Of a stretch of 64,000 nucleotides of DNA, positions 3,213 to 52,411 are shown one piece after another. The stretch comes from an uncultured Candidatus Saccharibacteria bacterium (GTDB lineage Bacteria > Patescibacteriota > Minisyncoccia > UBA6257). The notes beneath the pieces are model-generated. The model saw only the letters and a program-made list of their open reading frames with translations. It was not told the DNA's origin and did not search any database. The stretch covers positions 65,940 through 129,939 of the forward strand of contig CAZUBI010000001.1 of the NCBI GenBank assembly GCA_964618625.1, read 5' to 3'. Position numbers and translations under genes: made by a program. Every line of letters starts with the position of its first letter. Position 1 is the stretch's first letter.

Positions 3213-3277
3213 GAGGGTAGATTGTTGAGAAAACCATAGCAATTAGCGTGTTTTTGAAACAATTACCTGGGTCTCTA
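3213..3277 (+). repeat. family-A palindromic intergenic element, copy a (core ...GAGAAAACCATAGCAATTAGCGTGTTTTTGAAAC...)
   Basis: Shares the conserved core with 8 other copies. Itself nested in an outer palindrome agatagaaatagag / ctctattctcattctatct (about 3197..3292). Confidence 0.8.
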
Positions 3278-3320
3278 TTCTCATTCTATCTTATTTCCCC
3301 TGTGATTTCCAGCTGTTAAA

Positions 3321-3387
3321 CCCCCACACCAAACGGGCACATACTCTGTTTAGTGCAAAGCACTCAGTGCTCATTATGGTGTGGGGG
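3321..3387 (+). ncRNA. candidate structured small RNA, copy 1 (P1 CCCCCACACC/GGUGUGGGGG; P2 GGGCAC/GUGCUC; P3 AGUGC-AAA-GCACU)
   Basis: Nested 3-helix hairpin. A second copy at 55016..55086 keeps the structure through compensatory changes. Confidence 0.5.
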
Positions 3388-3392
3388 TAAAA

Positions 3393-3422
3393 TTGACAAA
3401 AACAGTGTTTAAGATATATAAT
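3393..3422 (+). promoter_or_regulatory. sigma-70-like promoter (TTGACA-18-TATAAT) immediately upstream of murC; implies a leaderless or near-leaderless mRNA
   Basis: TTGACA at 3393-3398 and TATAAT at 3417-3422; ATG at 3429. Confidence 0.5.
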
Positions 3423-3428
3423 TACTAA

Positions 3429-4829
3429 ATGGCTATGAAGAAAAAGCAAATTCATTTAATCGGCATTGGAGGAGTAGGAATGACCGCTTTAGCCAATCTC
3501 TTATTAGAAAAAGGATATTCATTATCAGGCTCTGATAAAAATGATTTTGTAGCAAGAAAGATTTTAGAAAAAAAAGGAGCAAAGATATATATTGGCCACA
3601 AGGCTGATAATATAAAAAAAACAGAAATTGTAATTTATTCTTCTGCAATTCCTGTTAATAACATTGAGCTTGAAACAGCTCAAAAGATGAAAGTTCCTTT
3701 ATCGAATCGTTTTGATTTTCTGATGAATATTCTGGTTGAAAAAAAGATCATTAGCATTGCAGGAACTCATGGAAAAAGTACTACTGTAGCAATGATTGCC
3801 CATATTTTAGAAAAAGCAAAATTAAAACCAACAGTTTATTTAGGAGCTAAAAATAAAACGTATCCATTGGGAAGTAAATGGGGATCAGGAGAATATTCTG
3901 TTTTGGAAACAGATGAGCATGATAAATCGTTTTTAAAAACTCCGTTTTTTCTTTGTGTAATTACTAATGTTGATAAGGATCATTTAGATATTAATGGTCC
4001 TTATAAAGGACAATTTTCTTTATTGAAAAAAGCTTTTGAAGATTTTTCTCAAAATAATCAGTCTGGATTTATTGTTTTAAATAATGATGATTCTTTTTTA
4101 AAAAAAATAGCAAAACAAAAGAAAAGAAAATCTTTAACTTTTGGAATAAACAATAAAGCCGATCTTTTTGTCAAAAATATTGATTATAAAGGAATAAAAA
4201 CTTTTTCGGATTTATTTATAAATAATAAATTTCAAGGAAGATTAGAGCTCTCTTTGCCTGGAAAAGAAAATATCTACAATGCTTTAGGCGCTATTTCTGT
4301 TTCACAAATTCTCAATGTTCCTTTAAAAGATGCCCTGCAATATTTAAAAACCTTTACTGGTATAAAAAGAAGATTTTCCATCCTATATAATAAAGAAATT
4401 GCAATAATTGATGATTATGCGCATCATCCTACTGAAATAGAAGGTACTTTAAGAATGGCAAGAATTGTTTTTCCAAAAAGAAAAATTATATTAATTTTAG
4501 AACCTCATCGTTATTCTCGAATTTTTCTTCTGTATAAAGACTTTGCTCGAGCAATAAAGAATTGCGACATTTTATTTCTTTTACCGCTAGATTCATCTAA
4601 TGAAAAACCTATTAAAAGGATTAACAGCGAAAAAATATATAAGGAGATATTAAAAACAAAAACCTTAAGTAAAAATAAATTACATCTTGTAAAAAATGAA
4701 TCATCTTTTTTGAGAAATCTTTTCAAATTTCAAAAAGATGGTGATGTTTTCCTTTTTGCTGGTCCAGGAAAAATAGCAAATCTTCCCCCTCAATTTATTA
4801 ATTTATTGAAAAGTTATGAAAAAGAATAA
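3429..4829 (+). CDS. murC: UDP-N-acetylmuramate--L-alanine ligase (MurC-family Mur ligase)
   Basis: HLIGIGGVGMTALA N-terminal Rossmann motif and GTHGKSTT P-loop typical of MurC/Mpl. Confidence 0.8.
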   Translation: MAMKKKQIHLIGIGGVGMTALANLLLEKGYSLSGSDKNDFVARKILEKKGAKIYIGHKADNIKKTEIVIYSSAIPVNNIELETAQKMKVPLSNRFDFLMNILVEKKIISIAGTHGKSTTVAMIAHILEKAKLKPTVYLGAKNKTYPLGSKWGSGEYSVLETDEHDKSFLKTPFFLCVITNVDKDHLDINGPYKGQFSLLKKAFEDFSQNNQSGFIVLNNDDSFLKKIAKQKKRKSLTFGINNKADLFVKNIDYKGIKTFSDLFINNKFQGRLELSLPGKENIYNALGAISVSQILNVPLKDALQYLKTFTGIKRRFSILYNKEIAIIDDYAHHPTEIEGTLRMARIVFPKRKIILILEPHRYSRIFLLYKDFARAIKNCDILFLLPLDSSNEKPIKRINSEKIYKEILKTKTLSKNKLHLVKNESSFLRNLFKFQKDGDVFLFAGPGKIANLPPQFINLLKSYEKE

Positions 4830-6075
4830 TAACTATAGAAAAATTTGTTTAGTAATTTTAGTTATAATTTGCCTCGTAGGCGCATGGGTTTTTGGTTTTT
4901 CTCAAGGCGCAAATTGGGGTTGGAAAGCTAATTTACCTTCTCCTTTTGAAAAAATTATCAATAAAGAAAAACCTGCGGAAATCACAGAAACTGACATGAG
5001 TATTTTTTGGGATACATGGAAGGTTATTTTAGAAAAATATGTTGGTAGAAATGATTTAGATGCTCAAAAAATAATCTTAGGCGCTACCAGAGGTATAATA
5101 AACGCATTGAAAGACCCCTATTCAGAGTTTTTGGATTCTGAGCAAACAAAAAATCTTTCTCAGGAATTATCCGGAGAATTCTATGGTGTGGGAATGGAAA
5201 TTGGAAGACGCGATGGATTTTTGATAGTCATAGCGCCTCTTTCAGATACTCCTGCAGAAAAAGCTGGATTGAAGGCAAACGATAAAATTATTAAAATAGA
5301 TGAAACTGAAACAATTGATTTATCTCCGTTTGAAGCTGCTAAGCTAATACGAGGGCCAGAAAGAACAAAGGTAATATTAACTATTTATCGATCTAATTGG
5401 GATGAAGCAAAAAAAATAGAATTAATTAGAAAAAAGATTTCTATTCCTTCAGTAAAATGGGAAAAAATAGATAATAATATTGCTTATCTGAAAATTTATA
5501 ATTTTAACCAACCTCTTACACTTAATTTTTATAAAATAGCTTTAGAAATAGCTTTTACCAGACCACAGGGGTTAATTATAGATCTTAGAAATAATCCAGG
5601 CGGATATTTAGAATCAGTCGTTAATATTAGCGGTTGGTTTTTAGAAAAAGGAGATATTATTCTTAAAGAAGATTTTGGTAATGATAAAATAAAAATCTTT
5701 CGGGTAAGAATTGGGCAAGCATTACTGAAAAACATTCCTACAGTTATTCTAATAAATGAAGGTACAGCTTCAGCTTCAGAAATATTAGCTGGCGCTTTAA
5801 GAGATAATAGGGGAGTTAAATTAATTGGGGAGAAAAGCTTTGGCAAAGGATCTGTACAAGAATTAGTTTCCTTAAAAGATAATAATAGCGTTAAAATCAC
5901 TATATCACGATGGCTGACCCCCAATGAAACTATTATTGAAGATAATGGCCTTATTCCAGATATTGAAGTTAAAAACGAGGAAGAATTTGGCACTTTTTCT
6001 AAAATAGATTTAGAAAAAGACAAACAATTACAAACAGCTATAGCAGAATTACAAAAATTACTAACCACTAATTAA
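4816..6075 (+). CDS. ctpA: carboxyl-terminal processing protease (S41 family with PDZ domain)
   Basis: PDZ segment ([12 protein letters not shown]) and S41 catalytic region [13 protein letters not shown] ... [13 protein letters not shown]; N-terminal membrane anchor. Confidence 0.8.
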
Positions 6076-6083
6076 TAATCCTT

Positions 6084-6548
6084 ATGAAAATTTATCTTTT
6101 AAAAGATGTCCAAAGTTTAGGCAATAAAGGAGAAATTAAAAATGTAGCAGATGGTTATGCTATAAATTATCTTTTTCCCCAAAAAATTGCCCAAAGAGCT
6201 GATTCAGATATTATCAAAAAGGTTTCAGAAAAAAAAGAACAGAAGATAAAAACTGATAAAAAACAAAAAGAGCAAGCTCTTAAACTAGCCACCCGTCTTA
6301 AAAAGATTATTTTAGAAATTCCCCTTAAATTCCCTGAAAAAGGAAAGGGGGCTTATAGCTCTGTAAACAGCAAAAGAATTATTGAAGAATTGGAAGCTCA
6401 AGGCATTCATCTATTAGAAAATCAAATTGAATTAAAAAAATCCCTCAAAAAGGAAGGACTTTATGATGTGCGTTTAATTCTATATCCTGGAATAGAAACC
6501 TCCTTGAAGGTAAGGATTAAAGCTATTATTTCTGAACAGAAGGAATGA
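6084..6548 (+). CDS. rplI: 50S ribosomal protein L9
   Basis: [32 protein letters not shown] matches the L9 N-domain. Confidence 0.85.
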
Positions 6549-6813
6549 CATTTATCAGGCTAATTCTTTTTGTTTTGCCTGTAAAAGTTCTTTTTCTTTT
6601 ATTAGAAAATTTTACTATTCCATTAATAAGAGAATAAATAGTATCATCGCAACCTAATTTAGTGTTTAATCCTGGATGCCACTTAGTTCCTCTTTGCCTA
6701 ATTAAAACATTGCCAGATTTTACTATCTGACCATCAAATTTCTTAACTCCTAATCTTTTAGATTTTGAATCCCTTCCTAATTTTGTTGAACCACCTGACT
6801 TAACGTGCGCCAT
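6526..6813 (-). CDS. rpmA: 50S ribosomal protein L27
   Basis: [29 protein letters not shown]...[10 protein letters not shown] is the L27 signature. Confidence 0.9.
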
Positions 6814-6830
6814 ATCTTTTAATAAATTTT

Positions 6831-7199: not shown

Positions 7200-7203
7200 A
7201 AAA

Positions 7204-8385: not shown

Positions 8386-8424
8386 ATTCAGTTATTTTAT
8401 CATGCATTTACCAACTTTCATATA

Positions 8425-8453: not shown

Positions 8454-8519
8454 AGAATTACTTGCAATTTGAAAACAGAATAAATTAAAAAATATAGAAA
8501 AGAAAAGGAGGGGATTTAA

Positions 8520-9086: not shown

Positions 9087-9130
9087 TGCGACAGGGAAAT
9101 AAGAAGTACCTGCCGCTATTTTATTTTATT
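9087..9130 (+). terminator. intrinsic terminator (GCGACAGG / CCTGCCGC stem then TATTTTATTTTATTT) after the DUF218 gene
   Basis: 8-bp stem with one mismatch, then a T-run. Confidence 0.5.
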
Positions 9131-10086
9131 TATGTTTTTAATTTACGACCGCTGTGAAATTTTTTATGAATTTCACGAAGTTTTTTACTGGTAACATGAG
9201 CATAAATTTGAGTAGCGGCAATACTTTTATGGCCAAGAAATTCCTGGAGTATTCTTAAGTCTACACCTTGGTTTAAAAGATCTGTCGAAAAACTATGGCG
9301 CATCGAATGTGGAGTAGTTGTTATTGGAACCCCTGACATAGCCACATATTTTTTCATATTCTTTTCAATTGAACGGGGAGTTAATCTTCGTGGTGCTCCT
9401 TTTTTACTCCTGTAATTGATAAATAACGCCTTTTCATTATCATTTCGAGTTTTAAAATATTTAGATAACCACAACAATGCTCTTTCAGAGAAATAAACAG
9501 TTCGTAATTTTTCTCCTTTACCAATAATTCCAACTTCTAATTCTCTTATTCCAGGATTTATCTTAATTTGATCTCTGTTTAATGAAACTAATTCCGCTAT
9601 TCTCATACCAGTAGAGAATAGAACCTCTAAAATAGCTCTATCCCGTAATCCTTGCTTTTTAGAGGTATCAGGGGCTGAAAATAATTTTTCTAATTGCTCT
9701 AAATTTAAAAAGCTAACTTGTTTTTCATCTCTGTCTTTAGCTAATTTTATCTTCTCAGCTGGTAAAGACAAAATATCTCTATCAGCAAAATAATTTAAGA
9801 AGGATCTTAAAGCTATTAAATAATAATTCTGAGTTGTTTTTTTAAGGGGTGTTTTTGTTTTAGGAAGATACCGACGCGAAAGAAAAACTCGATATTTCCA
9901 AATATGATCAGCATTTAATTCATGGGGCTTTAAACCTTCTAAATTATTTAATTTTAACCAATCTAAGAATTTTTTTAAAAATCTATTATAATTTTCCTGG
10001 GATTTAGAAGATAAACCTTTCTCAATATCTAACCAATCTAAAAAATCAGATAAATGGTCGGGGAGTGGTTTTTGGTTCTTTTTCAT
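9130..10086 (-). CDS. xerC: tyrosine site-specific recombinase, XerC/XerD family
   Basis: C-terminal catalytic region HSMRHSFSTDLLNQGVDLRILQEFLGHKSIAATQIYAHV (R..H-R-H..Y). Confidence 0.8.
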   Translation of the reverse strand: MKKNQKPLPDHLSDFLDWLDIEKGLSSKSQENYNRFLKKFLDWLKLNNLEGLKPHELNADHIWKYRVFLSRRYLPKTKTPLKKTTQNYYLIALRSFLNYFADRDILSLPAEKIKLAKDRDEKQVSFLNLEQLEKLFSAPDTSKKQGLRDRAILEVLFSTGMRIAELVSLNRDQIKINPGIRELEVGIIGKGEKLRTVYFSERALLWLSKYFKTRNDNEKALFINYRSKKGAPRRLTPRSIEKNMKKYVAMSGVPITTTPHSMRHSFSTDLLNQGVDLRILQEFLGHKSIAATQIYAHVTSKKLREIHKKFHSGRKLKT

Positions 10087-10500: not shown

Positions 10501-10567
10501 AAGGTTTAAAATGTTGTTGAGAAAACTATAGCGTTTTGCGTGTGTTTGAAACAATATTCAGAACCTT
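10501..10567 (+). repeat. family-A palindromic intergenic element, copy b
   Basis: aaggtttaaaatgttgttGAGAAAACTATAGCGTTTTGCGTGTGTTTGAAACaatattcagaacctt. Confidence 0.8.
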
Positions 10568-14570: not shown

Positions 14571-15890
14571 ATGAATAGAATTCTAACAATTCTGTCAGTA
14601 ATCCTAGTTTTAGGAATCGGAATATTTTTTGGTTCTCGTTTTTTCCAAAGATATTTAGAGTCCCAAGGAATTTTAGAGGCCCGAGTTCATCCTGCTGAAG
14701 CTACTTTAAAAATTAATAATAAAATTTATCAGAATAAACAAGGCATTTTTAAGATTAGATTACACCCTGGAGAACATTCTGTCTCCTTTTCATGTCCAGA
14801 TTATTCATTTTTGGAAGATAAAGTAAAAATTGAAAGTAATAAAACAACTAATCTTAATCATATTTATCTATTCCCTAATAGTTGGCCTAAAGAAAGAATT
14901 ATAACAAATGAAAAAATCGAACATTTCTATTTGAGCCCGGATTCTAATCGCATTCTTTTCATAAAAAAATCTTCTAATTATGATTGGTATATTTTTGATA
15001 GAAGCACAAAACAAAAAGAATACTTTCATAAAACCGCTTCTTTGCCATATGATATTGTTTTTTCTCCAAAAAAGATTCTAATTCATTCAGAAAAAAATAA
15101 TTGGGAAATTGTATTTTTACCAAAAAGCCTTATTAAAAATGGCATCTCTTTAAACACTCCATTTAAGGAAGCGCTGGATCAAGCGGAATTAAAAGAAAAA
15201 CAAACCTCTCTGACTATAAACCAAGCTATTTTCTACCTAAAAAATGATGGCGACATAATCGTTAAAACTACTGATGCAATTTATCTTTTTAATTTTCTTA
15301 CAGAATCTATAGAAAAAATATATGAAGGCAAAAGCTCCACTTTTATATTTGAGAACTATTATATCTATTTTATAAAAGAAAATGGGGTCTTTGCTAAAAT
15401 TTCTTTGGAGACAAAAAAAGAAATGGAAACATCTCTGTATAGTTTTTCTCTTGAAGATTTAGAGAAAGCTAAAATTAGAAAAGAAAAAAGTGAAAACAAC
15501 TTTTTAATTATTGAAGGATCAAAAAAAGCTTATTATTTAAAAGAATTTGAAAATTTACCAAAATTAATTGGTGAAAATGTTATTGATGGCATTTTTTCTT
15601 TAAACAAAAAAGAAATATTATTATATTCAAAGGATAAAATTGAAATTTATAATCCAGAAAGCGAAATTAAGTATTCTAAAAAACTTTATTCTGATATTCC
15701 AGTCACTTGGTTTCTTAATAACAACTATGTTTTATCCTTAAAAGATAACTTGCTTAATATTTATTCGCTCAAAAATAATAAAACCTGGCCTATTGCCAGT
15801 AATATAAAAAATAATAACTTTTTCTACGACCCTTCAATAAATTATATCTTTTATCTTTCCGATTCAGGTATAATAAAAGTATCTCTGTAA
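14571..15890 (+). CDS. membrane-anchored hypothetical protein with TolB-like beta-propeller-type repeats
   Basis: N-terminal TM helix, then a repetitive beta-rich pattern (YLSPDSNRILF, FSPKKILIHSE...). Confidence 0.4.
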   Translation: MNRILTILSVILVLGIGIFFGSRFFQRYLESQGILEARVHPAEATLKINNKIYQNKQGIFKIRLHPGEHSVSFSCPDYSFLEDKVKIESNKTTNLNHIYLFPNSWPKERIITNEKIEHFYLSPDSNRILFIKKSSNYDWYIFDRSTKQKEYFHKTASLPYDIVFSPKKILIHSEKNNWEIVFLPKSLIKNGISLNTPFKEALDQAELKEKQTSLTINQAIFYLKNDGDIIVKTTDAIYLFNFLTESIEKIYEGKSSTFIFENYYIYFIKENGVFAKISLETKKEMETSLYSFSLEDLEKAKIRKEKSENNFLIIEGSKKAYYLKEFENLPKLIGENVIDGIFSLNKKEILLYSKDKIEIYNPESEIKYSKKLYSDIPVTWFLNNNYVLSLKDNLLNIYSLKNNKTWPIASNIKNNNFFYDPSINYIFYLSDSGIIKVSL

Positions 15891-15892
15891 AT

Positions 15893-17146
15893 TTATTCGT
15901 ATCTTAAAGCATCAATTGGGCTTAATTTTGCTGCTTTGCGAGCAGGATAAATTCCAAAAATAAGGCCTATACTTGTAGCCACTCCAAACGCCAATATTAT
16001 AGAACTTAAAGAAAGAACAAAGTCCCACTTTATACCTAAAGCCATAGTTAAAGCAATGCTTATAAGATAAGAAAAAATAGCTCCTAATAAAATTCCTAAT
16101 ATTCCACCTAAAACAGTAAGAACCACTGCTTCAATTAAAAATTGATAAAGAATATCTTTTTTACGAGCGCCAACTGCTTTTCTTAAACCAATTTCCCTCG
16201 TTCTTTCGACCACTGAAACTAACATAATATTCATAATTCCAACTCCACCAACCACTAAAGCAATAGCGGCTACAGAAGATAAAAGTAATGTAAGGATGCT
16301 TGTAACTGTATTCATAATCGCGGCAGTTTCTTTTCCGCTCACCACCTTAAAATCATCTTTCGATAAATCTCCTTCTGGATTATATATATTATGCCTCTCC
16401 CTTAACATTAAACGAATACCTTCTACAGCTTCATCAATCTTATCCTGATTAACTATTTTAACTACAGAAGACTGCACGTGATTAATGCCTAATAAGAATT
16501 TTTGAGCACTAGAAATTGGAATATATATATATTCGTCAAGGTTTTGAAACATCTGCGTTCCTTGTTCCTCCATAACACCAATTACTCTAAAATTGGTTTT
16601 TTTAATTCTAATAATCTTGCCTATAGGATTTTCATCTTCAAACAAATCTTCCTTTATTTTATATCCTAAAACAACCACCTTTGACATACTCTGAACATCA
16701 AAATCAGTAAAATTAGATCCTAATATAGTTTGGACATCAGTTATTTTATTATATGCTGGAGTAGTGCCATAAAAGGTAATCTTTTCATCATTATTTTTAT
16801 AAATTACCCTACTCACACTAACAACTATTGGAGCAACCATTTCTACTAATGAATCTTTTTCAATTGCTTCCATGTCTTCAATGGTTAGTGTTTTAATTTC
16901 CATTCCCTCCATCATTTGTTGCGTCATATCACCTCCGCCTGCAAAGGCACCTGGTTCAACAAAAACATTATTAGCCCCCATTGACATAATCTGTCCTAAA
17001 ATTAAATTCTGAGCTCCATCGCCTAATGACATCATTAAAATAACTGATGCTATACCAATCACAATTCCCAAGATAGTTAAAAAAGAACGCGTTTTATTCG
17101 TTTTTAATCCTATTATTGCGGTTTTGAAAGAATTACTAAATTTCAT
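15893..17146 (-). CDS. ABC transporter permease, FtsX/MacB-type
   Basis: N-terminal TM helix, large periplasmic domain and C-terminal FtsX-like 3-TM region. Confidence 0.8.
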   Translation of the reverse strand: MKFSNSFKTAIIGLKTNKTRSFLTILGIVIGIASVILMMSLGDGAQNLILGQIMSMGANNVFVEPGAFAGGGDMTQQMMEGMEIKTLTIEDMEAIEKDSLVEMVAPIVVSVSRVIYKNNDEKITFYGTTPAYNKITDVQTILGSNFTDFDVQSMSKVVVLGYKIKEDLFEDENPIGKIIRIKKTNFRVIGVMEEQGTQMFQNLDEYIYIPISSAQKFLLGINHVQSSVVKIVNQDKIDEAVEGIRLMLRERHNIYNPEGDLSKDDFKVVSGKETAAIMNTVTSILTLLLSSVAAIALVVGGVGIMNIMLVSVVERTREIGLRKAVGARKKDILYQFLIEAVVLTVLGGILGILLGAIFSYLISIALTMALGIKWDFVLSLSSIILAFGVATSIGLIFGIYPARKAAKLSPIDALRYE

Positions 17147-17202
17147 AATTTTATTTCGAATGAAATGAGAAACAAGGTTCTGTGAGCAAAGCGAGCAGGT
17201 TC

Positions 17203-17913
17203 TTATTTAATCAAGCCATCTTTAGCATAATGTCTTGAATTTACCAATTCGTCACTAATTACCTTTCCGTCTTTTAATGAAATAATCCTTTTTGCCATTT
17301 CAGCTGTATATTTTTCATGAGTAACTAAAATTATAGTATGGCCCTGATTATTAAGTTTTTCAAAAATATCCATTATTTGCTGGCCCGATTTACTATCTAA
17401 ATTACCCGTTGGCTCATCTGCAAAAATTACAGATGGATGATTAACTATTGCTCGAGCAATTGCTGTTTTTTGCTGTTCTCCACCAGAAAGCTGATTTGGA
17501 AAATGAGAAGCCCTATGCAAAATACCAACTGCTTCAAGGGCCTGTTTTGTCATCTCATATTCTTTTTGTTTAGAAAAACCAGTATAAATTAAAGGCAATC
17601 TCACATTATCAAAAACTGTAGTTCTGGATAAAAGATTATAGGATTGAAAAACAAAACCCATTCTTTTGTTTCTAATTCTTGCTAATTCATCATCATTAAA
17701 ATTATCCATACTTTTTCCTTCAAATTTACAGATTCCTGAACTTGGTCTATCTAAAAAACACATAATGTGCATTAAAGTTGACTTTCCAGAACCAGAAGGC
17801 CCCATAATAGAAACAAATTCTCCTTGCGCAATCTTAAAAGAAACCCCTTGTAGAGCTGGGGTTTCAACAGAATCATTGCGATAAATCTTTTTAAGATTTT
17901 CAACTTTGATCAT
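17203..17913 (-). CDS. ABC transporter ATP-binding protein (MacB/LolD-type)
   Basis: Walker A GPSGSGKST, signature LSGGEQQ, Walker B IIFADEPTGNLD. Confidence 0.9.
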   Translation of the reverse strand: MIKVENLKKIYRNDSVETPALQGVSFKIAQGEFVSIMGPSGSGKSTLMHIMCFLDRPSSGICKFEGKSMDNFNDDELARIRNKRMGFVFQSYNLLSRTTVFDNVRLPLIYTGFSKQKEYEMTKQALEAVGILHRASHFPNQLSGGEQQKTAIARAIVNHPSVIFADEPTGNLDSKSGQQIMDIFEKLNNQGHTIILVTHEKYTAEMAKRIISLKDGKVISDELVNSRHYAKDGLIK

Positions 17914-21643: not shown

Positions 21644-21712
21644 CTGTATTTTATTTTTTAATTTTGAAACAATAATCTAAACATCGTATCCTTGTATATA
21701 GCTTAAAGGCGA

Positions 21713-21767
21713 ATGTGATTGTTGAGAAAAACTATAGCGATTAGCGTGTTTTTGAGACAATCACATA
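21713..21767 (+). repeat. family-A palindromic intergenic element, copy c (between rpoA stop and rplQ start)
   Basis: atgtgattgttGAGAAAAACTATAGCGATTAGCGTGTTTTTGAGACaatcacat. Confidence 0.8.
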
Positions 21768-21788
21768 AACCTTTGCTATTTGTTTCTC

Positions 21789-22715: not shown

Positions 22716-22768
22716 GATATTAATATAATTTTTAATTTTGTAATTTTTAATTTTAAATCAAATTAATA

Positions 22769-23386: not shown

Positions 23387-23455
23387 ACTATTATATAATT
23401 TTTAGTTTCCAGTTTTTAATTTTTTAACAAATCTTAAATTCTACTTTTAAATAAT

Positions 23456-23523
23456 AAGGTTCGGAAATGTTGTTGAGAAAACCATAGCGATTAGCGTGTT
23501 TTAAAACAATATTCCGAATCTTT
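23456..23523 (+). repeat. family-A palindromic intergenic element, copy d (between rpsK and rpsD)
   Basis: aaggttcggaaatgttgttGAGAAAACCATAGCGATTAGCGTGTTTTAAAACaatattccgaatcttt. Confidence 0.8.
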
Positions 23524-24386: not shown

Positions 24387-24425
24387 TAAATTAATTCAAT
24401 TAATTTTAAAATCTAAAGGGTGAAA

Positions 24426-24480
24426 GGTAGTTGTTGAAGAAACCATAGCGATTAGCGTGTTTATGAAACAATCATCCGAG
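24426..24480 (+). repeat. family-A palindromic intergenic element, copy e (between rpmJ and rpsM)
   Basis: ggtagttgttGAAGAAACCATAGCGATTAGCGTGTTTATGAAACaatcatccgag. Confidence 0.75.
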
Positions 24481-24482
24481 CC

Positions 24483-24596
24483 TCATCCTTGTCGCTGTTT
24501 GTGTTTAGGATTTTGACAAATAACATACACACGACCTTTTCGTCGGACTATCTTGCAATTTCTACAAATTTTTTTTACTGATGCTCTAACTTTCAT
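24483..24596 (-). CDS. rpmJ: 50S ribosomal protein L36 (37 aa; absent from the supplied ORF track)
   Basis: Hand translation: [37 protein letters not shown]. Confidence 0.85.
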
Positions 24597-24616
24597 ATAT
24601 TAAAAATAAAATCGGT

Positions 24617-24870: not shown

Positions 24871-26268
24871 TTAGTCAATAAAAAGGTTGATTTTGTCTAA
24901 AGAATTTGGAACTTTTCTTATCCACAATGGCCGAAGTTTTACTTCTACATCTTTTATCCCAGGATTAGCCTCAAAAATCTGATTTAACTCCTTTTTATCT
25001 TTTCCAACAACAAGTTGCTTTATTTCCTCCAAAGATAATTTATGACACACAACTTGATTTGTTTTAATTGACATTCTCATCGTACCTTTACTAAAGTCTG
25101 TTTTTAATTCTAAATATTCTAATTCTGGCTTTTGACAATAATGATAATTTTCATCCTTGTCTTTTTCGAGAATTCCTTGTATGTATTCAATCATACTATC
25201 TTCATCGAACGCAATAACTTTAATTTCACCTTCAACACTAACTGAAAACTTTTCACGATAATCTCCAATACTGGCATCACTACTCAAATTAGTGAGATTT
25301 ATACTGCTTTTTGCTCCTGGTAATACTTTTAATTCTTTTGGTTTTTTTGGCATTTTATTTTCTAAATCCTGATTAATAGAATCCATAACTTTTTCAAAAA
25401 TAATTTCTTCTGCCCCTTTTAAGTCTTCTGAAGTTACCAAAGGAACTGAAGCAAAAGCCCCTCCTGTCATCGCTTTAGTAGAAGCACCATAAAAGCCATC
25501 AAATTTTGATGTTCCTTCAAATCCTGGAATAGTAAATTTACAATCAGGCAAATTACAAACTTCTATATTATAATCAGTTCCTGATTTATCTGCAGTAACT
25601 TTTACATCAATCGTAGATCGTACAAGTTTTCCATTTTTAGTAGTAGCTCCTGGAATAACAATACGGGAATCTAAGCGAAATATCTTATGATCAGGTGTTT
25701 CAAAACGGGTTGTAGCTACCAAAATTTGAGGAGAAGTTGAGTAATTATTATATATAGTAATTATTCCTTTGGCTTTTCTTTCGTCTTTGCCCTGTCCAGA
25801 ACTTGAAAATTCTTGCGTCTCTTCTGCTTTAAAAACAAATGAATTTCCAGGAATTATTGCTTTATTAAAGTCTATTGAGGAAACACTTGTATCTACCAAA
25901 ACAACGCCTGAAAAAGGCATTTCTATCTTCTTTGTAGTGATATTAATTTCCGCCTTAGCTAAAAATACAAACCCTAAATAATAAAAGGCAACCAAAGAAA
26001 AAAATACACCAAGAAGAATTATAGTCTTTTTATTAATCGCCATCTTCTTCTTTGCCCATTTTTCTTTAAAACCAGAATTAATCACCGTTATACTCTCTTC
26101 ACTTTCTGTTTTAGTATCTTCAATCTTTCTCTCTTGCTGTAATTTATCGGCCAAATGAATTGGGATTTCTTTTTCCTCAACTTCTTTTTTGCCAGACGAA
26201 TAATTATTTAATTCGTGTGGAAAAAAGATATCTTTAACTTTTCTTTTCTTTTTTTGAGAATTTTCCAT
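24871..26268 (-). CDS. hypothetical membrane-anchored protein (465 aa) with a large extracytoplasmic domain
   Basis: Single TM around residues 92-112; no recognisable motifs. Confidence 0.4.
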   Translation of the reverse strand: MENSQKKKRKVKDIFFPHELNNYSSGKKEVEEKEIPIHLADKLQQERKIEDTKTESEESITVINSGFKEKWAKKKMAINKKTIILLGVFFSLVAFYYLGFVFLAKAEINITTKKIEMPFSGVVLVDTSVSSIDFNKAIIPGNSFVFKAEETQEFSSSGQGKDERKAKGIITIYNNYSTSPQILVATTRFETPDHKIFRLDSRIVIPGATTKNGKLVRSTIDVKVTADKSGTDYNIEVCNLPDCKFTIPGFEGTSKFDGFYGASTKAMTGGAFASVPLVTSEDLKGAEEIIFEKVMDSINQDLENKMPKKPKELKVLPGAKSSINLTNLSSDASIGDYREKFSVSVEGEIKVIAFDEDSMIEYIQGILEKDKDENYHYCQKPELEYLELKTDFSKGTMRMSIKTNQVVCHKLSLEEIKQLVVGKDKKELNQIFEANPGIKDVEVKLRPLWIRKVPNSLDKINLFID

Positions 26269-32680: not shown

Positions 32681-32715
32681 ACTTAAATAATTCTTAATTT
32701 TTTAATTTTAAATTT

Positions 32716-33081
32716 TTAAAATCTGAGAAGAATTTTGGGAATAAAGATTATAAATCCTAAAATAAGCGCTGTCAAACAAGCTATAAGAACTGCTCCTGCT
32801 ATTAAATCTTTAATCATTCTAATTTTATCAGAAATATATGGTTCTAAAAAATCTAATGTTTTTTCAAGAACAGTATTTAATATTTCTAAACTAAGAATAG
32901 AACCGATGAGAAAAATTATTATAAGCCATTCAAAATAAAAAATTTGCAGCCAAAATCCGAGAATTAATGTTCCAATTGCTATAAGAAACATTAAAAGAAA
33001 ACTTTGTTGCAAAAATACATATTTTATTCCTTGAGAAGCATGATATATACTTTTGAGTAATTCTTTGAAAGAAAGTTTCAT
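32716..33081 (-). CDS. dgkA: diacylglycerol/undecaprenol kinase (DgkA family)
   Basis: 3-TM small protein with LSLEILNTVLEK (the E-x-LN-[ST]-A/V-[IL]-E DgkA motif). Confidence 0.65.
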   Translation of the reverse strand: MKLSFKELLKSIYHASQGIKYVFLQQSFLLMFLIAIGTLILGFWLQIFYFEWLIIIFLIGSILSLEILNTVLEKTLDFLEPYISDKIRMIKDLIAGAVLIACLTALILGFIIFIPKILLRF

Positions 33082-34654: not shown

Positions 34655-34715
34655 ATTAATATAGTTTTTTAATTCTCAATTTTTAATATTCCAATGTATA
34701 GAGTTTGAGGCAAAG

Positions 34716-34775
34716 ATGATTGTTGAAAAAAACTGTAGCGATTAGCGTGTTTTTAAAACAATCATCTGAGCCTAA
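34716..34775 (+). repeat. family-A palindromic intergenic element, copy f
   Basis: agatgattgttGAAAAAAACTGTAGCGATTAGCGTGTTTTTAAAACaatcatctgag. Confidence 0.75.
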
Positions 34776-37077: not shown

Positions 37078-37113
37078 GTTTGTTAATAATTAAAACTTAA
37101 TAGTTTTAATTCA

Positions 37114-37140
37114 ACGTTCTTGAGCAAAGCCACGTTTGAC
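37114..37140 (-). terminator. imperfect hairpin downstream of secF (possible terminator or processing site)
   Basis: GCAAAGCCACG-TTTGA-CGTGGCGAAGC; weak U-run. Shares the motif GTTCTKTGAGCAAAGC with 17183..17200. Confidence 0.3.
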
Positions 37141-37194
37141 GTGGCGAAGCAAAAGGTTGTTATATTATAATTAAAGCAAGAATTTAGCAAAGAG

Positions 37195-44639: not shown

Positions 44640-44708
44640 AAAGGTTCGGAATGTTGTTGAGAGAACTATAGCGTTTAGCGTGTTTATGAAACAATATTCC
44701 GAACCTTT
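44640..44708 (+). repeat. family-A palindromic intergenic element, copy g
   Basis: aaaggttcggaatgttgttGAGAGAACTATAGCGTTTAGCGTGTTTATGAAACaatattccgaaccttt. Confidence 0.8.
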
Positions 44709-45097: not shown

Positions 45098-45166
45098 AAG
45101 GTTCGGGGATATTGTTGAGAAAACCGTAGCGATTAGCGTGTTTTCGAAACAATATTCTGAACCTTT
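45098..45166 (+). repeat. family-A palindromic intergenic element, copy h
   Basis: aaggttcggggatattgttGAGAAAACCGTAGCGATTAGCGTGTTTTCGAAACaatattctgaaccttt. Confidence 0.8.
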
Positions 45167-47374: not shown

Positions 47375-49760
47375 TTTTGCTAATATCTAAAATTGTCTTT
47401 ATTACTGTATCTGGATTTAGAGACATGCTTTCTATCCCCTGTTTTGCCAAAAATTGTGCGAATTCTGGAAAATCCGATGGAGCTTGACCACAGATTCCCA
47501 CATATTTTTTCCTCTTCTTACAAACTTTGATTACTTCTGCAATCATTTTTTTAACAGCTTCATTTCTTTCATCTCCTATTTTTTGTATAACAGCATTATC
47601 TCTGTCTATTCCTAATGTTAATTGAGTTAAATCATTGCTTCCTATACTCATCCCATCAAAAATATCTAAAAATTCATTTATTAATACTACATTTGATGGA
47701 ATTTCACACATTACATATAGCTTTGTTGATTTTCCTCCATCTAGTAAGCCTGATTTTTGAATCAATGCTTTTACTTCCTTCGCTTCTTTTATAGTACGAC
47801 AAAAAGGAACCATTATTGTAATATTTTTTAATCCAAAAACTTGCTTTGCTCTTTTTATTGCCTCACATTCCATTAAAAAAGCCGGCTTAAATTGTGGGTC
47901 AATATAACGGCATGCGCCTCTAAATCCAAGCATTGGATTGGCTTCATCTTCTTGTTCAAAAAGCTCTCCTCCAATCAGATTGCGATATTCATTAGTCTTA
48001 AAATCAGAAAATCTTACTATTACTTCTTTCGGATAAAAAGCAGCAGCTATCTGGGCAATCCCCTCTGCTAACTCTTTTATAAAATATTCTTTCTTATCCT
48101 TATGCTCCACAGTCATTTCGTCAATTTTTCTAACAAGCTCTTTTGACTTAAGTTTCTTGTAATGATAAAGAGCTAAAGGATGAATTCTAATCTTCTCTGC
48201 AATAATAAATTCTTCTCTGGCTAATCCTACTCCATTATTGGGAAGAAATGATGTTGAAAAAGCAATTTCAGGAGCGCCAATATTAATCATGATCTTGGTT
48301 TTAATCTTGGGAAATTTTTTAAAATTATATTCTTTAATTTTAAAAGGAACTTTTCCATCAAAAATCTTCCCATCAAGACCTTGAGTGCAATCTACAGTTA
48401 CATCTTGTCCGTTTTTAAGAATTTTCGTAGCATTTATTGTCCCTACAATACACGGCACGCCTAATTCTCTGGAAATAATTGCGGCGTGACATGTTTTACT
48501 TCCTTCATTAGTAATAATAGCTGAAGCCATTGGAAAAACTGAAGTCCAATCAGGATCAGTCATTTTAGTAACTAAAACCTCTCCTTTTTTAAATTCAGAA
48601 AGTTTTGAAGCATTTTTTATAATATGCACTTTTCCTATACCAATTTTATTGCCAATAGCTATGCCATTTAAAATGGGCTTTTTTGTGGTTTTTATTTTAT
48701 ATTTCTGATAAATATTTGCTTTGATTGAATGGACAGTTTCTGGTCTTGATTGGACAATAAATAATTCGCCTGTTTTTCCATCCTTTGCCCATTCTATGTC
48801 CTGAGGCATCCATTTTTTTTGAATCTTTGAATAGTGTTCTTCAATAATAATCCCCCATTTTGCCAAAGTAAGAATTTCGTCATCAGAAAGAGAAAATTTT
48901 AATTGGTCTTTTTCAGAAACCGCAATTTCCTTAAGCCCGGTCTTTTTGTTGTAAATATATTTTTTTGTCTTTCTTCCTAAATCTTTTCTAATAATTGGCC
49001 TATATAGCCTGCCCTGAGTTTGTCGAAGGGTAGGTTTAAAAACATAAAATTCGTCAGGAGTAATCAACCCTTTTACTATCATCTCCCCTATTCCAAAAAT
49101 GGAATTAATCAAAACCACATTGGAAAATCCCGTCTCTGTATCTAAGGTAAACATAACTCCAGAAGACGCTAAATCAGAACGCACCATTTTTTGAACTCCA
49201 GTGGAAAGCCCAATATCCATATGCTTAAATCCTTTTTCTTCCCGGTACATTATTGCCCTATCAGTAAACAAAGATGCGTAACTATTTTTAACCGCTTTTA
49301 GTAATTCTTCTTCTCCCCTTACATTCAAATAAGTTTCATGTTGACCTGCAAAACTAGCTGAAGGAAGATCCTCGGCTGTGGCAGAAGAACGAACTGCCAC
49401 ATCTAAATCATTTTGTTTATATATCCTGCAAAGCTTTTGATAATTCTTAATAATGTCTTTCTCCAAATCTTTAGGTAAAGGCGTCCCTAAAATTAATTTT
49501 CTTATTTTCTTTCCTGTTTTTTGAAGGTTTTTAATGCTCTTCGGATTAAACTCAGATAAAATTCCTTGAATAGTTTTTTTAATTTTGCCTTTTTCTAAAA
49601 AATAAAAATATGCTTGAGCAGAAATAGCAAAACCATTTGGGATATTTATTCCTTTTTTTGATAAATTCCTATACATCTCCCCCAAAGAGGCATTCTTTCC
49701 CCCTACAATAGGAACATCTTTGATATTTATTTCCTTAAACCACAAAACATATCTCTTCAT
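47364..49760 (-). CDS. ppsA: phosphoenolpyruvate synthase (PEP-utilising enzyme family)
   Basis: N-terminal ATP-grasp (GGKNASLGEM) and phosphohistidine domain GSKTCHAAIISRELGVPCIVGT; 798 aa. Confidence 0.8.
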   Translation of the reverse strand: MKRYVLWFKEINIKDVPIVGGKNASLGEMYRNLSKKGINIPNGFAISAQAYFYFLEKGKIKKTIQGILSEFNPKSIKNLQKTGKKIRKLILGTPLPKDLEKDIIKNYQKLCRIYKQNDLDVAVRSSATAEDLPSASFAGQHETYLNVRGEEELLKAVKNSYASLFTDRAIMYREEKGFKHMDIGLSTGVQKMVRSDLASSGVMFTLDTETGFSNVVLINSIFGIGEMIVKGLITPDEFYVFKPTLRQTQGRLYRPIIRKDLGRKTKKYIYNKKTGLKEIAVSEKDQLKFSLSDDEILTLAKWGIIIEEHYSKIQKKWMPQDIEWAKDGKTGELFIVQSRPETVHSIKANIYQKYKIKTTKKPILNGIAIGNKIGIGKVHIIKNASKLSEFKKGEVLVTKMTDPDWTSVFPMASAIITNEGSKTCHAAIISRELGVPCIVGTINATKILKNGQDVTVDCTQGLDGKIFDGKVPFKIKEYNFKKFPKIKTKIMINIGAPEIAFSTSFLPNNGVGLAREEFIIAEKIRIHPLALYHYKKLKSKELVRKIDEMTVEHKDKKEYFIKELAEGIAQIAAAFYPKEVIVRFSDFKTNEYRNLIGGELFEQEDEANPMLGFRGACRYIDPQFKPAFLMECEAIKRAKQVFGLKNITIMVPFCRTIKEAKEVKALIQKSGLLDGGKSTKLYVMCEIPSNVVLINEFLDIFDGMSIGSNDLTQLTLGIDRDNAVIQKIGDERNEAVKKMIAEVIKVCKKRKKYVGICGQAPSDFPEFAQFLAKQGIESMSLNPDTVIKTILDISKNEN

Positions 49761-49780
49761 ATTAATATAATTTCAGATTT

Positions 49781-50008
49781 TTAATTGTTATTTATTTTAT
49801 AATCTTCAATAAATTTCTTTATTGAACGATCATAGCTCTTTTCTGCTTCTTTAGAAAAACAACAAGCAGGCAATTCGTCATTTGCTAAATGATATTTTAT
49901 GCACTCACAACAAATCCCCTTTCTGGGACAACCTGGATAAGTACAAGAACATATTTTTAAATTTTTTTCTTTCTGACATTCCATAATTGTTATAATAAAG
50001 TTATCCAC
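49781..50008 (-). CDS. small Cys-rich protein (75 aa, 9 Cys; putative metal-binding)
   Basis: MECQKEKNLKICSCTYPGCPRKGICCEC...ACC. Confidence 0.4.
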   Translation of the reverse strand: MDNFIITIMECQKEKNLKICSCTYPGCPRKGICCECIKYHLANDELPACCFSKEAEKSYDRSIKKFIEDYKINNN

Positions 50009-50024
50009 ATGGGGCTTGACAAGA

Positions 50025-50121
50025 TTAAAATGTTTGCTATACTACCAATGCTACTGTCTAGAGAGATTGAATAGCTTGCTATTTAGTTTCAAAGGGCAGT
50101 AGCATTCTTTTTACTACTCTT
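50025..50121 (+). ncRNA. candidate plus-strand small RNA: TTGACA-16-TATACT promoter followed by a 9-bp stem (ATGCTACTG/CAGTAGCAT, nested ATAGC/GCTAT) and TCTTTTT
   Basis: Promoter 50025-50052, hairpin 50057-50114, U-run 50115-50121; no plus-strand CDS nearby. Overlaps the 3' end of minus-strand gene 50114..50962. Confidence 0.3.
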
Positions 50122-50962
50122 CCAATAATAATATCTCTGCCTCTCTTTTGATGGCAGAGATCTTTTTTTCGGGAATTCTTGTTTTTTTTGAAAATTTTAC
50201 TACATCTATCTTTAATAAATTCTGAACTAACATTAATTTTTGCTGATAAAATATTTCTAACAAATTATTGGTTAAAGATGGAAGAATAGTAATTGGATAA
50301 AATTTTTCTGATTCAATCACATACTCTAACCCTCTTAGCTCTGGATATTTCCATCCTAATAAATCTATGCCAGCACACTCAGCATATTTAATTATTTTGC
50401 TTGTAAATTTAGTATTAGTGACAATAATCGGTCGTATTTTTAGTTTTTCTGATTTAATTTTTGCAAAAAAATTACCTGATTTCAAATCTAAAAAGCGGGC
50501 ACAATGAATTAAACCAACTTTTAAATCCACCCTTCCCCCTGGCAAACTATGATATTTACATTCTCCAATTAAAAAATATCTTTCCTCTTTGGCTAAAAAA
50601 TCAATTTCGTGACGAACACATTGTCCTTTAACATATTGATTAAGTTCAATAGAAAAACCTAATTGTTTTAAAATCCCTCCAACATATTTTTCAAATGGAA
50701 AACCACTGGGACCTAAGCGTCTCATCGCTTCTTTTAACCTAAAACGAATTCTACCGCGAGGATACTCTTTTGATAAGATTTGTTCAACTCGTTGAAAAAT
50801 TTCTTTTGTGGTTATTCCAGGATATGCTTCCCTTTCAATAATAGTGGCAATTTCTTTTGCTAATGCCCTTGGAGCACCAACTCGTTCAGCGCCATTACAA
50901 ATCTTTTTCCATGAAAAAGTCTCCTTCCTGCCTAAACTGTTGATAACATATAATTTTTTCAT
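50114..50962 (-). CDS. ATP-cone domain fused to a PD-(D/E)xK (Mrr-like) restriction-endonuclease-like domain
   Basis: N-terminal ATP-cone-like region (KKICNGAER...) and HEIDFLAKEERYFLIGECKYH nuclease core. Confidence 0.5.
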   Translation of the reverse strand: MKKLYVINSLGRKETFSWKKICNGAERVGAPRALAKEIATIIEREAYPGITTKEIFQRVEQILSKEYPRGRIRFRLKEAMRRLGPSGFPFEKYVGGILKQLGFSIELNQYVKGQCVRHEIDFLAKEERYFLIGECKYHSLPGGRVDLKVGLIHCARFLDLKSGNFFAKIKSEKLKIRPIIVTNTKFTSKIIKYAECAGIDLLGWKYPELRGLEYVIESEKFYPITILPSLTNNLLEIFYQQKLMLVQNLLKIDVVKFSKKTRIPEKKISAIKREAEILLLEE

Positions 50963-50966
50963 ATTT

Positions 50967-51677
50967 TTATCTTACTTTACTACCAGGTGATACTTCTCCT
51001 TCTGGGACTAATAAAACAGGCCCTTGCGAAGAATCAACTGCTAAAAGCATACCCTGACTTACATAACCCTTTATTTTTTTAGGCTCTAAATTAGCCACAA
51101 TAATAATCTTTTTGCCTTCTAATTCTTCTAAAGAATAGTCCTTAGCAATACCGGCAACTAATTGTCTTTTTTCTGTACCCAAATCAATGTGCAAAATAAG
51201 AAGCTCGTCTGCTTCTTCTATTTTTTCTGCTTTTAAAATTTTAGCTACACGTAAATCCAATTGTTCAAATTGATCAAAAGTAATCATATTTTTTTGAGAA
51301 AATGGTTTCTTGTTTTGAACTCGTTTTTGAATTTCCTCTTCATTCATACCAAAGTGATGAGCTATTTCATGCCAAACCGTTTCTTGCACAATTTCTTTAA
51401 TTCTTTCTTCATTATTATTCGTTGCTTTTTCAATGTTTTTTTGAAATAAAGTTATTTTGTCTGGCGCTGCCCTATAATAGTACCCTCTTTTAATTTGAGG
51501 AACTCCCTCGTACAAACCCAAAATAGAACCGCCAGAAGAATAGCCTAATTGTTGTCTCTGAAATTCACTTGGTTCATTTTGCGCTACAATAGCAATATTT
51601 TTTAATTTATTTAGAAACCGATAAGAGAGTTTTTTAAGGGCCTGGCTTATTAAATCTTCAAATCTTTCTTTCTCCAT
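50967..51677 (-). CDS. fusion of a putative Zn-metallopeptidase-like domain (HEIAHH) with a C-terminal tRNA-binding (CsaA/Myf/EMAP-type) domain
   Basis: VWHEIAHHFGM HExxH motif; C-terminus LDLRVAKILKAEKIEEADELLILHIDLG...GMLLAV typical of the OB-fold tRNA-binding domain. Confidence 0.5.
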   Translation of the reverse strand: MEKERFEDLISQALKKLSYRFLNKLKNIAIVAQNEPSEFQRQQLGYSSGGSILGLYEGVPQIKRGYYYRAAPDKITLFQKNIEKATNNNEERIKEIVQETVWHEIAHHFGMNEEEIQKRVQNKKPFSQKNMITFDQFEQLDLRVAKILKAEKIEEADELLILHIDLGTEKRQLVAGIAKDYSLEELEGKKIIIVANLEPKKIKGYVSQGMLLAVDSSQGPVLLVPEGEVSPGSKVR

Positions 51678-51679
51678 AT

Positions 51680-52078
51680 TTATGTTTCAAGATGTTTAAT
51701 AATTTCCTCAAAAATATCCGGTGGGATTGGAATTGGATCCCCTGGTTTAGTTATTCCCGGATATTTCCACGCACTAATAACTTTTATTCTACGGCCTCGC
51801 TCACTAACAAGTTGATACATTACCCAAATCTCATAAGGATGCTTTTTAGAGCCAGCCTTTTGCATTGAAGCTAAAGTTTTTGGAGCAATACCTTCTTCCA
51901 CTCTTTTGGGATTTCTTATCACCCGCTTTACCCTGCTTTCAGAAAGCATATATTGGCGCATCTTTGCTTGAGAATGTTTGGTCCAAACAAATAAACTTTC
52001 TTTATTTCGAGCGGAGCGAGAAACAAAGTTCTCGCCGAAGGCGGGGTTTTTATTCTCTTTGTACTTAATAAAATTCAT
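51680..52078 (-). CDS. hypothetical protein (possibly DUF4258-like)
   Basis: HSQAKMRQYMLSESRVKRVIRNP resembles the DUF4258 core. Weak call. Confidence 0.25.
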   Translation of the reverse strand: MNFIKYKENKNPAFGENFVSRSARNKESLFVWTKHSQAKMRQYMLSESRVKRVIRNPKRVEEGIAPKTLASMQKAGSKKHPYEIWVMYQLVSERGRRIKVISAWKYPGITKPGDPIPIPPDIFEEIIKHLET

Positions 52079-52335
52079 TTTATTTCAAAATCAATTAGCC
52101 CCTCGTCTTTTTCTATACTTTCTTCTATATTTTCAATATTATCCTGAAAATAATCTTTTAAGCAATTTATTAAACTTTCTATATTTTCTTCTAGTCCCTC
52201 TACTACTAAAGTAACACTTCCATCATCATTATTCTCTACCCAACCAGTTAAATTATGCTTTTTAGCTAACATCGCAACTCTAAAACGAAACCCTACACCT
52301 TGAATTTGACCATAGAAAATGATTTTTTTACGCAT
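52075..52335 (-). CDS. acyP: acylphosphatase; start at the internal Met (MRKKIIFYGQIQGVGFRF), since the longer ORF would run through repeat copy i
   Basis: V.G.VQGVGFR acylphosphatase signature. Confidence 0.7.
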   Translation of the reverse strand: MRKKIIFYGQIQGVGFRFRVAMLAKKHNLTGWVENNDDGSVTLVVEGLEENIESLINCLKDYFQDNIENIEESIEKDEGLIDFEIK

Positions 52336-52350
52336 AATACTGTCATAAGA

Positions 52351-52411
52351 CGAATGGATGTTATTGAAGAAACTGTAGCGATTAGCATGTTTATGAAATA
52401 ACATCTACTCG
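52351..52411 (+). repeat. family-A palindromic intergenic element, copy i (most diverged core, TGTAGCGATTAGCATG)
   Basis: cgaatggatgttattGAAGAAACTGTAGCGATTAGCATGTTTATGAAATaacatctactcg. Confidence 0.7.

Follow-up and report, generated by a model that had tools for sequence, protein, structure and literature searches.

A Dispersed, Strand-Specific Hairpin Repeat behind Stop Codons in Saccharibacteria

Several bacterial systems are built on short, structured, and non-coding repeats. REPs and REPINs, the elements associated with RAYT, are short, extragenic, and non-autonomous, and occur in many copies. They form long hairpins in single-stranded DNA (ssDNA) or RNA that are kept by compensatory changes, they cluster with other repeats, and they persist over long times by mostly vertical inheritance (Bertels & Rainey 2011, PMC3116915). 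MITE-like palindromes such as Correia/NEMIS, ERIC/IRU, RUP, and bcr1 are inverted repeats of 70–150 nucleotides (nt) at A/T-rich intergenic sites. They show insertion polymorphism, form hairpins in transcripts, and exist in longer as well as internally deleted forms. Integron attC sites are imperfect palindromes that lie just after open reading frames (ORFs) in one orientation, with structure conserved over sequence and with one active strand. Finally, the ssoA single-strand origins of rolling-circle plasmids are strand-specific hairpins with an RNA polymerase binding site (RSB) and the CS-6 motif (TAGCGT) in the loop (PMC4598088, PMC8860593, PMC5703833). Here, we describe family A, a hairpin repeat with nine copies in a 64,000-nt stretch of contig CAZUBI010000001.1 (the window) from an uncultured Candidatus Saccharibacteria bacterium. 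Family A shares the traits listed above with REPINs, MITE-like palindromes, and attC sites; with ssoA it shares a strand-specific, long imperfect hairpin in which GAGAAAAC (the RSB core) and TAGCGA/T (CS-6) follow each other in the same order.

Family A is a previously undescribed, clade-specific repeat family. It behaves like REP/REPIN or MITE-type elements yet lacks defining features of both. REPINs consist of two inverted, conserved REP ends with a less conserved spacer (PMC3116915), whereas family A has a conserved centre and a variable mid-stem. It is A/T-rich, about 70 nt long, and devoid of a GTAG or CGTC tag, GTAG appearing only when the R position of the loop is G. It is also strongly biased in its orientation to genes, resides in a member of the candidate phyla radiation (CPR) with a genome of about 1 Mb, and no RAYT was found among the ORFs in 840 kb around the copies. 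What it does have in common with REPINs is a hairpin kept by compensatory changes. Unlike MITE-like palindromes, family A lacks conserved terminal inverted repeats: the arms are complementary within a copy, and only AAGG/CCTT is common to all termini. No clear TA or fixed-length duplication is seen, its longer form (150 nt) is itself non-coding, its non-canonical pairs are strand-specific, and no cognate autonomous insertion sequence (IS) with the same ends was found in about 0.7 Mb around the copies. Presence or absence at orthologous sites, as expected of a MITE, was observed at 12 sites or more. Compared to attC sites, the neighbors of family A are fixed housekeeping genes instead of cassettes, the element itself comes and goes, and the sole tyrosine recombinase in the vicinity is of a generic XerC/D-like type. 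An attC-like site was rejected by inspection, as R''/R' core sites in the required order are missing. Taken together, family A is probably a non-coding, non-autonomous, and dispersed hairpin element of approximately 70 nt, analogous to REP/REPIN and MITE-type repeats.

Nine Copies in the Window and Their Relatives

Nine copies at specific positions had been proposed in an earlier reading of the sequence (the original prediction), and all nine are confirmed. The 13-mer TAGCGATTAGCGT with up to two mismatches matches the window nine times against 0.52 expected from shuffles, and all of these matches are on the plus strand. The 27-nt core with up to three mismatches matches six times against zero expected. 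A covariance model built from the nine window copies (R1) recovers exactly these nine in the window with 72–93 bits, but scores the reverse strand of the copies with 21–29 bits only. Every window copy folds into a hairpin of about 70 nt; the extents in Table 1 are derived from these folds. All nine are intergenic and in one orientation, as predicted, with copy i touching only the over-extended 5' end of the acyP ORF. The outer palindrome around copy a also extends beyond the hairpin, as had been noted. The stop codon of rpmJ (L36), an unlisted ORF on the minus strand at about 24491–24610, lies within the outer stem of copy e.

Table 1. Coordinates and Context of Family A Elements in the Window and of the Related Long Form (Loci outside the Window Carry L Numbers)
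Feature	Position	Strand	Context	R1 score (bits)
Copy a	3205..3278	+	divergent spacer thpR(-)/murC(+); loop variant TAGCAATTAGCGT	85.2
Copy b	10501..10567	+	3 nt after gltX stop; upstream of conserved 65-aa ORF; loop variant TAGCGTTTTGCGT	79.1
Right-arm half copy	21663..21693	+	TTTGAAACAATAATCTAAAC; remnant beside copy c; missed by the original prediction	
Copy c	21704..21775	+	rpoA/rplQ junction, 13 nt after rpoA stop	81
Copy d	23456..23522	+	rpsK/rpsD junction, 2 nt after rpsK stop	86.1
Copy e	24416..24490	+	rpmJ/rpsM junction, overlaps rpmJ stop; most degenerate stem	78.6
Copy f	34708..34773	+	10 nt after stop of DUF8128 gene; upstream of VirD4/TraG-like ATPase	77
Copy g	44640..44708	+	8 nt after HIT gene stop; upstream of HAD hydrolase; perfect stem	84.5
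Copy h	45098..45165	+	12 nt after 2-hydroxyacid dehydrogenase stop; upstream of HIT gene	93.3
Copy i	52349..52413	+	4 nt after stop of ychF-like GTPase; upstream of acyP; loop variant TAGCGATTAGCAT	72.4
Long-form family	L036:2706-2852, L008:4709-4854, L060:5325-5475, L108:912-1051, L061		found by isolated-arm scan	

A scan of 185,579 species-representative genomes for the exact core returned 13 places in three 'Candidatus Saccharibacteria' metagenome-assembled genomes (MAGs). Two contigs labeled Pacearchaeota and Paceibacterota also bear family A; one of these (L008) contains a ribosomal-protein operon 66–76% identical to that of the window. The other single matches, in unrelated taxa, have nothing in common beyond a 17-mer. 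A metagenome scan added 84 loci, in which R1 finds 100 copies. Window, MAG, and metagenome loci together contain 124 copies, 106 of them with unique sequence. The closest syntenic material includes MAG CAYZJA01, which is 85–94% identical to the window over syntenic stretches, and the Logan assemblies SRR8482191, SRR8482192, and SRR8482198, which encode proteins identical to those of the window. The Logan contigs that belong to the window's own genome (L114, L115–L117, and L118) begin or end inside copies b and h. Since short-read contigs break at family A copies, these repeats fragment assemblies of the organism.

The exact core is absent from IMG/VR (0 matches), and BLAST searches of plasmid and phage collections returned fragments at chance level only. 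The 14-mer GAGCGGGCATGGTT has at least 120 matches in IMG/VR, which we take as chance hits of a poorly chosen probe. Our literature searches found no account of such repeats in Saccharibacteria or CPR bacteria. On this distribution, family A is probably specific to a narrow clade of low-GC Saccharibacteria.

Hairpin Structure and Strand Asymmetry

Read on the plus strand and from the outside inward, family A has an AAGG...CCTT base, followed by an outer stem of approximately 12 bp that is hypervariable in sequence but keeps its complementarity, often with a tandem G·A/G·A mismatch. Inside lies a collar of conserved sequence, TTGTT-GA-GAAAAC / GTTTTT-GA-AACAA, which contains an internal loop of tandem G·A/G·A. 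The apical module reads YR-TAGC-(5–7 variable nt)-GCGT. Copies that were not ascertained by the search seed keep TAGC...GCGT apically, not the direct repeat TAGCG...TAGCG.

In an alignment of 96 copies, 95.3% of the pair cells contain standard pairs, compared to 45–54% when the partners are slid. Both-sided changes occur in 147 cells versus 38.4 in shuffles, a value reached by none of 500 shuffles, and 11 of the 21 pairs show compensatory change, although these covariation counts are inflated by shared descent. Many stem positions occur with three or four types of Watson–Crick pairs. The same is seen among orthologs: at sites g and e, double substitutions preserve pairing, and at site g (L018, L029, L055, L068) TTCGGAA/TTCCGAA has changed to TTTGAAA/TTTCAAA with pairing retained. 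The hairpin is under constraint, with covarying stems. Rfam 15 detects only tRNAs in the window at gathering score and contains no family that matches the element; the best match over copies g and h is a miRNA model with 19.9 bits.

The two strands of the hairpin are not equivalent. The plus strand folds better as RNA in 105 of the 106 unique copies, with mean energies of -30.0 versus -22.2 kcal/mol, and it owes this stability to its non-canonical pairs. In the inner stem, G·T outnumbers A·C by 105 to 6; among the outer-stem mismatches, 84 are purine–purine and 8 are pyrimidine–pyrimidine. A second tandem G·A/G·A is found among these mismatches in 16 copies, and the reciprocal arrangement is almost absent. 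Three features of the original prediction, namely the tandem G·A loop, flanks that covary, and wobbles restricted to plus-strand pairing, extend to about 105 unique copies. Base composition does not account for this pattern. The window has 31% GC with a G-rich minus strand that bears most genes, and a plus strand that is C- and T-rich overall, so that the opposite mismatch pattern would be expected from composition or from common mutation biases. Our inference is that constraint acts on the folded plus strand, either as RNA or as ssDNA. This strand is antisense to most of the neighboring genes and corresponds, by GC skew, to the leading-strand template.

Insertion Sites, Polymorphism, and a Longer Form

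For eight of the nine window copies, 0–13 nt separate the hairpin end from the stop codon of the minus-strand gene that precedes it. Over the family, the median distance from the hairpin end to the upstream stop codon is 9 nt, and at eight sites or more the insertion is exactly at the upstream stop codon, even where the original spacer measures 20 nt or more. The original prediction placed the copies always upstream of minus-strand start codons. The window copies do lie near starts, which follows from the very short spacers, but proximity to the stop codon is the sharper rule, and the context varies among relatives. The proposed bias to ribosomal-protein junctions is based on three of the nine copies, and relatives fill different junctions.

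The orientation relative to genes is also biased. Among 89 classifiable unique copies, 61 are antisense to both neighbors, 7 are sense to both, 13 lie in divergent, and 8 in convergent spacers. The intergenic background is 83% co-oriented, about 8% divergent, and about 8% convergent. There is thus a strong, though incomplete, bias in orientation and no avoidance of convergent sites. Hairpin stability shows no difference across these gene contexts. Replication direction alone can be ruled out as the cause of orientation, given that site a occurs in both orientations and that L063 contains two opposite copies 3 kb apart among co-oriented genes. Nothing conserved adjoins AAGG/CCTT in the flanks of the copies. 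An A/T-rich 'tail' was considered as part of the element and dismissed, since the few recurrent modules of this kind also occur without a hairpin; we treat them as separate modules. They lie directly upstream of start codons (window 23390–23440, 22723–22757, 32685–32719, and many other loci) and read, in gene sense, as TTAAAAATTAAAAATTGGAAATTAAAAATTAT-like sequences or as runs of (TTGTTAA)n heptamers.

When syntenic relatives are aligned, 12 or more orthologous sites carry the element in some genomes and lack it in others. The element is absent at junctions that are filled in the window, and present at others that are empty in the window, near positions 7200, 8390, 23990, 28210, 29573, 38078, and 41384. 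Together with one 5'-truncated copy and with half copies, this insertion polymorphism agrees with the REP/MITE-like palindrome that was among the initial suggestions. The polymorphic sites include the interior of essential ribosomal-protein operons. Site d (rpsK–rpsD) is empty in L007, L010, L041, and L037, filled in L109, and occupied by a long form in L008. Site h is empty in L018 and L029, where the junction reads AAAYTAA|AATTATG. The rpoA–rplQ junction (site c) carries a half copy in L041, where a deletion extends between the half-copy arm (21663–21693) and the right arm of copy c; L007, L037, and L109 contain one to three copies of a different repeat at this junction. Site b is filled in L035, L048, L080, and L089 and absent from L102, site e is filled in L007, L008, L010, L037, L092, and L109 and reduced to a short hairpin in L041, and site g is filled in L018, L029, L055, and L068. 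At site i, the core is present in the orthologous gap of L055. Site a has an ortholog in L069 and is inverted in L072 and L036. The possibility that outer stems are copied from the target was discarded, as the empty sites show no similarity to the stems. The rpmJ–rpsM site of one lineage (L038:716-846 and L100:5542-5672) contains a full copy followed by a rearranged second copy with the 3' end of the apical domain of a long form (CTGGGAAATTTGATAGCGT); the insertions here are clustered, either nested or side by side.

A scan for isolated arms in about 0.7 Mb around the copies revealed a non-coding long form of approximately 150–190 nt as well as remnants (Table 1). The window itself contains no long form. 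The long form follows the design of family A and shares its lower stem and G·A collar: the outer stem is variable but complementary, and the collar reads YTTT-GA-GAAAC / GTTTTC-GA-AAAR. Its apical domain is GC-rich and three-way, with the conserved segments GAGCGGGCATGGTT, AGCGAGGAGG, and CTCGCTGGGGATTTTTGGACG; the core of this domain is almost invariant between genomes, and one hairpin covaries. The long form in L036 folds with -65.8 kcal/mol on the plus strand (z = -7.0) as compared to -54.1 on the other strand. Two observations link family A to this form. Model R2, which represents the long form, aligns with several short copies over their whole length, and two hybrids (L031:3238-3392 and L058:1673-1871) consist of family A arms around a GC-rich insert of about 100 nt. 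These hybrids contain TAGCG at both ends of the apical domain, so that the short loop CYR-TAGCG-AT-TAGCGT corresponds to a fusion of these ends. Family A appears to be a miniature of the rarer long form that arose by internal deletion. Neither Rfam nor the plasmid and phage collections contain a match to the long form.

Other repeat families are also present. A second dispersed family of long hairpins (CCCCCACACC...GGTGTGGGGG) is found in the window at 3317–3393 and 55013–55090, and in relatives at L009:3901-3980 and L017:3498-3576. It corresponds to a structured RNA candidate noted earlier beside copy a. A third family with GCAAAGC and GCGAAGC mini-hairpin motifs on the plus strand lies at 17146–17211 and 37083–37164 of the window, at L007:4477-4543, and at L109:7111-7285; it is this repeat that occupies the rpoA–rplQ junction of relatives in one to three tandem copies, where the window has copy c. 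Two long ORFs of the window lack a Pfam or NCBIfam match, one of 465 aa on the minus strand (24871–26268), directly upstream of infA in the ribosomal-protein cluster, and one of 439 aa on the plus strand (14571–15890).

Competing Explanations and Significance

How might a mobile hairpin repeat produce this pattern? Copies have been gained and lost at single intergenic sites while close relatives diverged. Those that persist lie nearly always immediately after a stop codon and, for the most part, in antisense to the genes beside them. The single-stranded plus strand, as ssDNA or RNA, may be recognized and propagated by a putative trans-acting protein. The stop-codon position and the antisense bias may reflect purifying selection in a very compact genome. 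The position behind the stop would be favored because only this insertion point leaves the leader of the downstream gene intact, and the antisense orientation because only this orientation puts the weaker hairpin, less stable by about 8 kcal/mol, into the mRNA. Any effect on the expression of neighbors would be secondary.

Several observations weigh against this mobile-repeat interpretation. A phmmer search of all ORFs in 840 kb around the copies with IS200 and IS608 TnpA sequences found no IS200/IS605 TnpA-like or RAYT ORF below E = 0.19. The folding strand is the leading-strand template by GC skew, opposite to the strand rule reportedly set out by Ton-Hoang et al. in 2010 for ssDNA transposition of the IS200/IS605 type. 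No termini are conserved beyond AAGG/CCTT, and no consistent target-site duplication is readable from about 12 aligned filled and empty junctions: ATTAA, ATCAA, or TAA may be duplicated at three to four of them, and the rest are ambiguous in A/T-rich sequence. The window copies are only 67–89% identical to each other, which indicates that there was no recent burst. Sites e, g, b, and i, and also a, are kept with preserved structure in relatives whose flanking genes are 70–87% identical, and such retention would also fit a host function. The window genes near the copies are housekeeping genes with no mobilizing gene among them. A XerC/XerD-like tyrosine recombinase of 318 aa (9130–10086, minus strand) lies near copy b and scores below equivalog cutoffs. 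We considered it as a mobilizer and rejected it, because it is generic, probably housekeeping, and has no specific link to the element. In L080, the region of this recombinase is located between two inverted family A copies.

The alternatives differ in which strand and which neighbor they call upon. The original prediction included a portable σ70-type promoter or operator cassette (TTGTTT-N18-TAYRGT) that fires on the minus strand into the downstream gene. The hexamers do keep TTG and TA...T, with the variable YR at the least important -10 positions, and 74 of 89 copies have a downstream gene in the right orientation. The remaining 15 point at no gene or against one (8 convergent, 7 sense). 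Only copy c, one of the four copies in a scanned region of 16 kb, satisfies a lenient consensus scan, and this A/T-rich DNA contains no more promoter-like sites than its shuffles (60 versus 64.6 expected). The supposed spacer is the most conserved part of the element, and substitutions in the -35 hexamer are matched by substitutions on the opposite arm, so that its apparent conservation is explained by stem pairing. Orthologous genes at empty sites do without the element. A promoter is very improbable. An intrinsic terminator was also rejected: a run of at least four T lies within 12 nt after the hairpin in 27% (gene sense) and 7% (plus sense) of the copies, and a terminator scan of the 16-kb region called no copy. 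More generally, the element could act in cis as part of the gene-sense mRNA, either as a stabilizing or terminating hairpin at 3' ends, or as an RNase III-type processing site between cistrons. Roles of this kind, as 3'-end hairpins or processing sites, are described for REP, ERIC, and Correia repeats. The median distance of 9 nt from the upstream stop, insertion exactly at the stop codon even with a spacer of 20 nt or more, and the common orientation of 61 of the 68 copies between co-oriented genes are consistent with such a role, and gene-sense RNA still folds at about -22 kcal/mol. However, selection for pairing acts on the opposite strand; in the gene-sense RNA, G·T turns into A·C, and G·A into U·C. 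Only 27% of the copies have at least four U after the hairpin, 13 divergent copies have no upstream transcript, 7 copies are reversed, and close relatives differ in whether a given operon junction holds the element. We therefore see only a slim chance for a cis-acting mRNA element.

A function for the host may also reside in the plus strand itself. Here, family A would be a strand-specific structured nucleic acid with the long form as its full version and with its spread secondary to function. Candidates would be a small structured RNA, either antisense or stand-alone, and an ssDNA signal such as an sso-type priming site for RNA polymerase. The two tandem G·A motifs and the G·T pairs favor the plus strand against background composition. 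The long form has a conserved three-way junction, with unpaired nucleotides that are invariant across three genomes and with covariation in one hairpin and the outer stem; orthologous copies have been retained and carry compensatory changes. The plus strand also reads ATGTTGTTGAGAAAAC-YR-TAGCGA, to be compared with ATGCCGAGAAAAC...TAGCGA (RSB, then CS-6) on the functional strand of ssoA; in pT181 and pE194, TAGCGA follows ATGCCGAGAAAAC at 48–62 nt. On the other hand, the plus strand has no recognizable promoter or terminator, with four or more T after the hairpin in 7% of copies, and many sites are polymorphic even inside essential ribosomal-protein operons. With regard to an sso, the best R1 match in pT181 and pE194 reaches 11.5 bits (E = 0.8), only 4 nt lie between the RSB-like and CS-6-like motifs as compared to about 50, and non-seed copies keep only TAGC...GCGT. 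Family A is chromosomal, multi-copy, and placed among housekeeping genes in an organism with DnaG, and its plus strand is the leading-strand template, on which priming is ordinarily unnecessary. Homology to ssoA was rejected, as there is neither a covariance-model match in pT181/pE194 nor a BLAST match in plasmids or phages, and the likeness is limited to two short motifs. The resemblance may serve as a lead of low probability, but not as an assignment to ssoA. Overall, a host function of the plus strand is unlikely, though not negligibly so, and we continue to favor a mobile, REP- or MITE-like repeat.

The genomes of Saccharibacteria and other members of the CPR are very small and densely packed with genes, and they are thought to be poor in repeats and mobile elements. 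The window departs from this expectation with several families of structured intergenic hairpin repeats, about one copy per 7 kb, some of them in ribosomal-protein operons. In practical terms, family A is a cause of fragmented MAGs, and its copies could serve as strain markers. It also points to a mobilization system that could be traced by phylogenetic profiling. With its strand-specific G·A/G·T pattern and its conserved 150-nt parent, family A is a clearly delimited candidate for a novel motif of structured RNA or ssDNA. There is a low chance that the short copies and their parents of about 150 nt, instead of being passive DNA palindromes, represent a novel class of structured nucleic acid that is strand-specific and functions, or moves, as the strand antisense to genes. 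This class could take two forms: a small mobile structured RNA with a conserved three-way core, or chromosomal analogues of plasmid single-strand origins, in which hairpins with the GAGAAAAC and TAGCG motifs might recruit RNA polymerase on ssDNA. If either form were true, these elements would be retained in a genome-reduced CPR bacterium for the benefit of the host.

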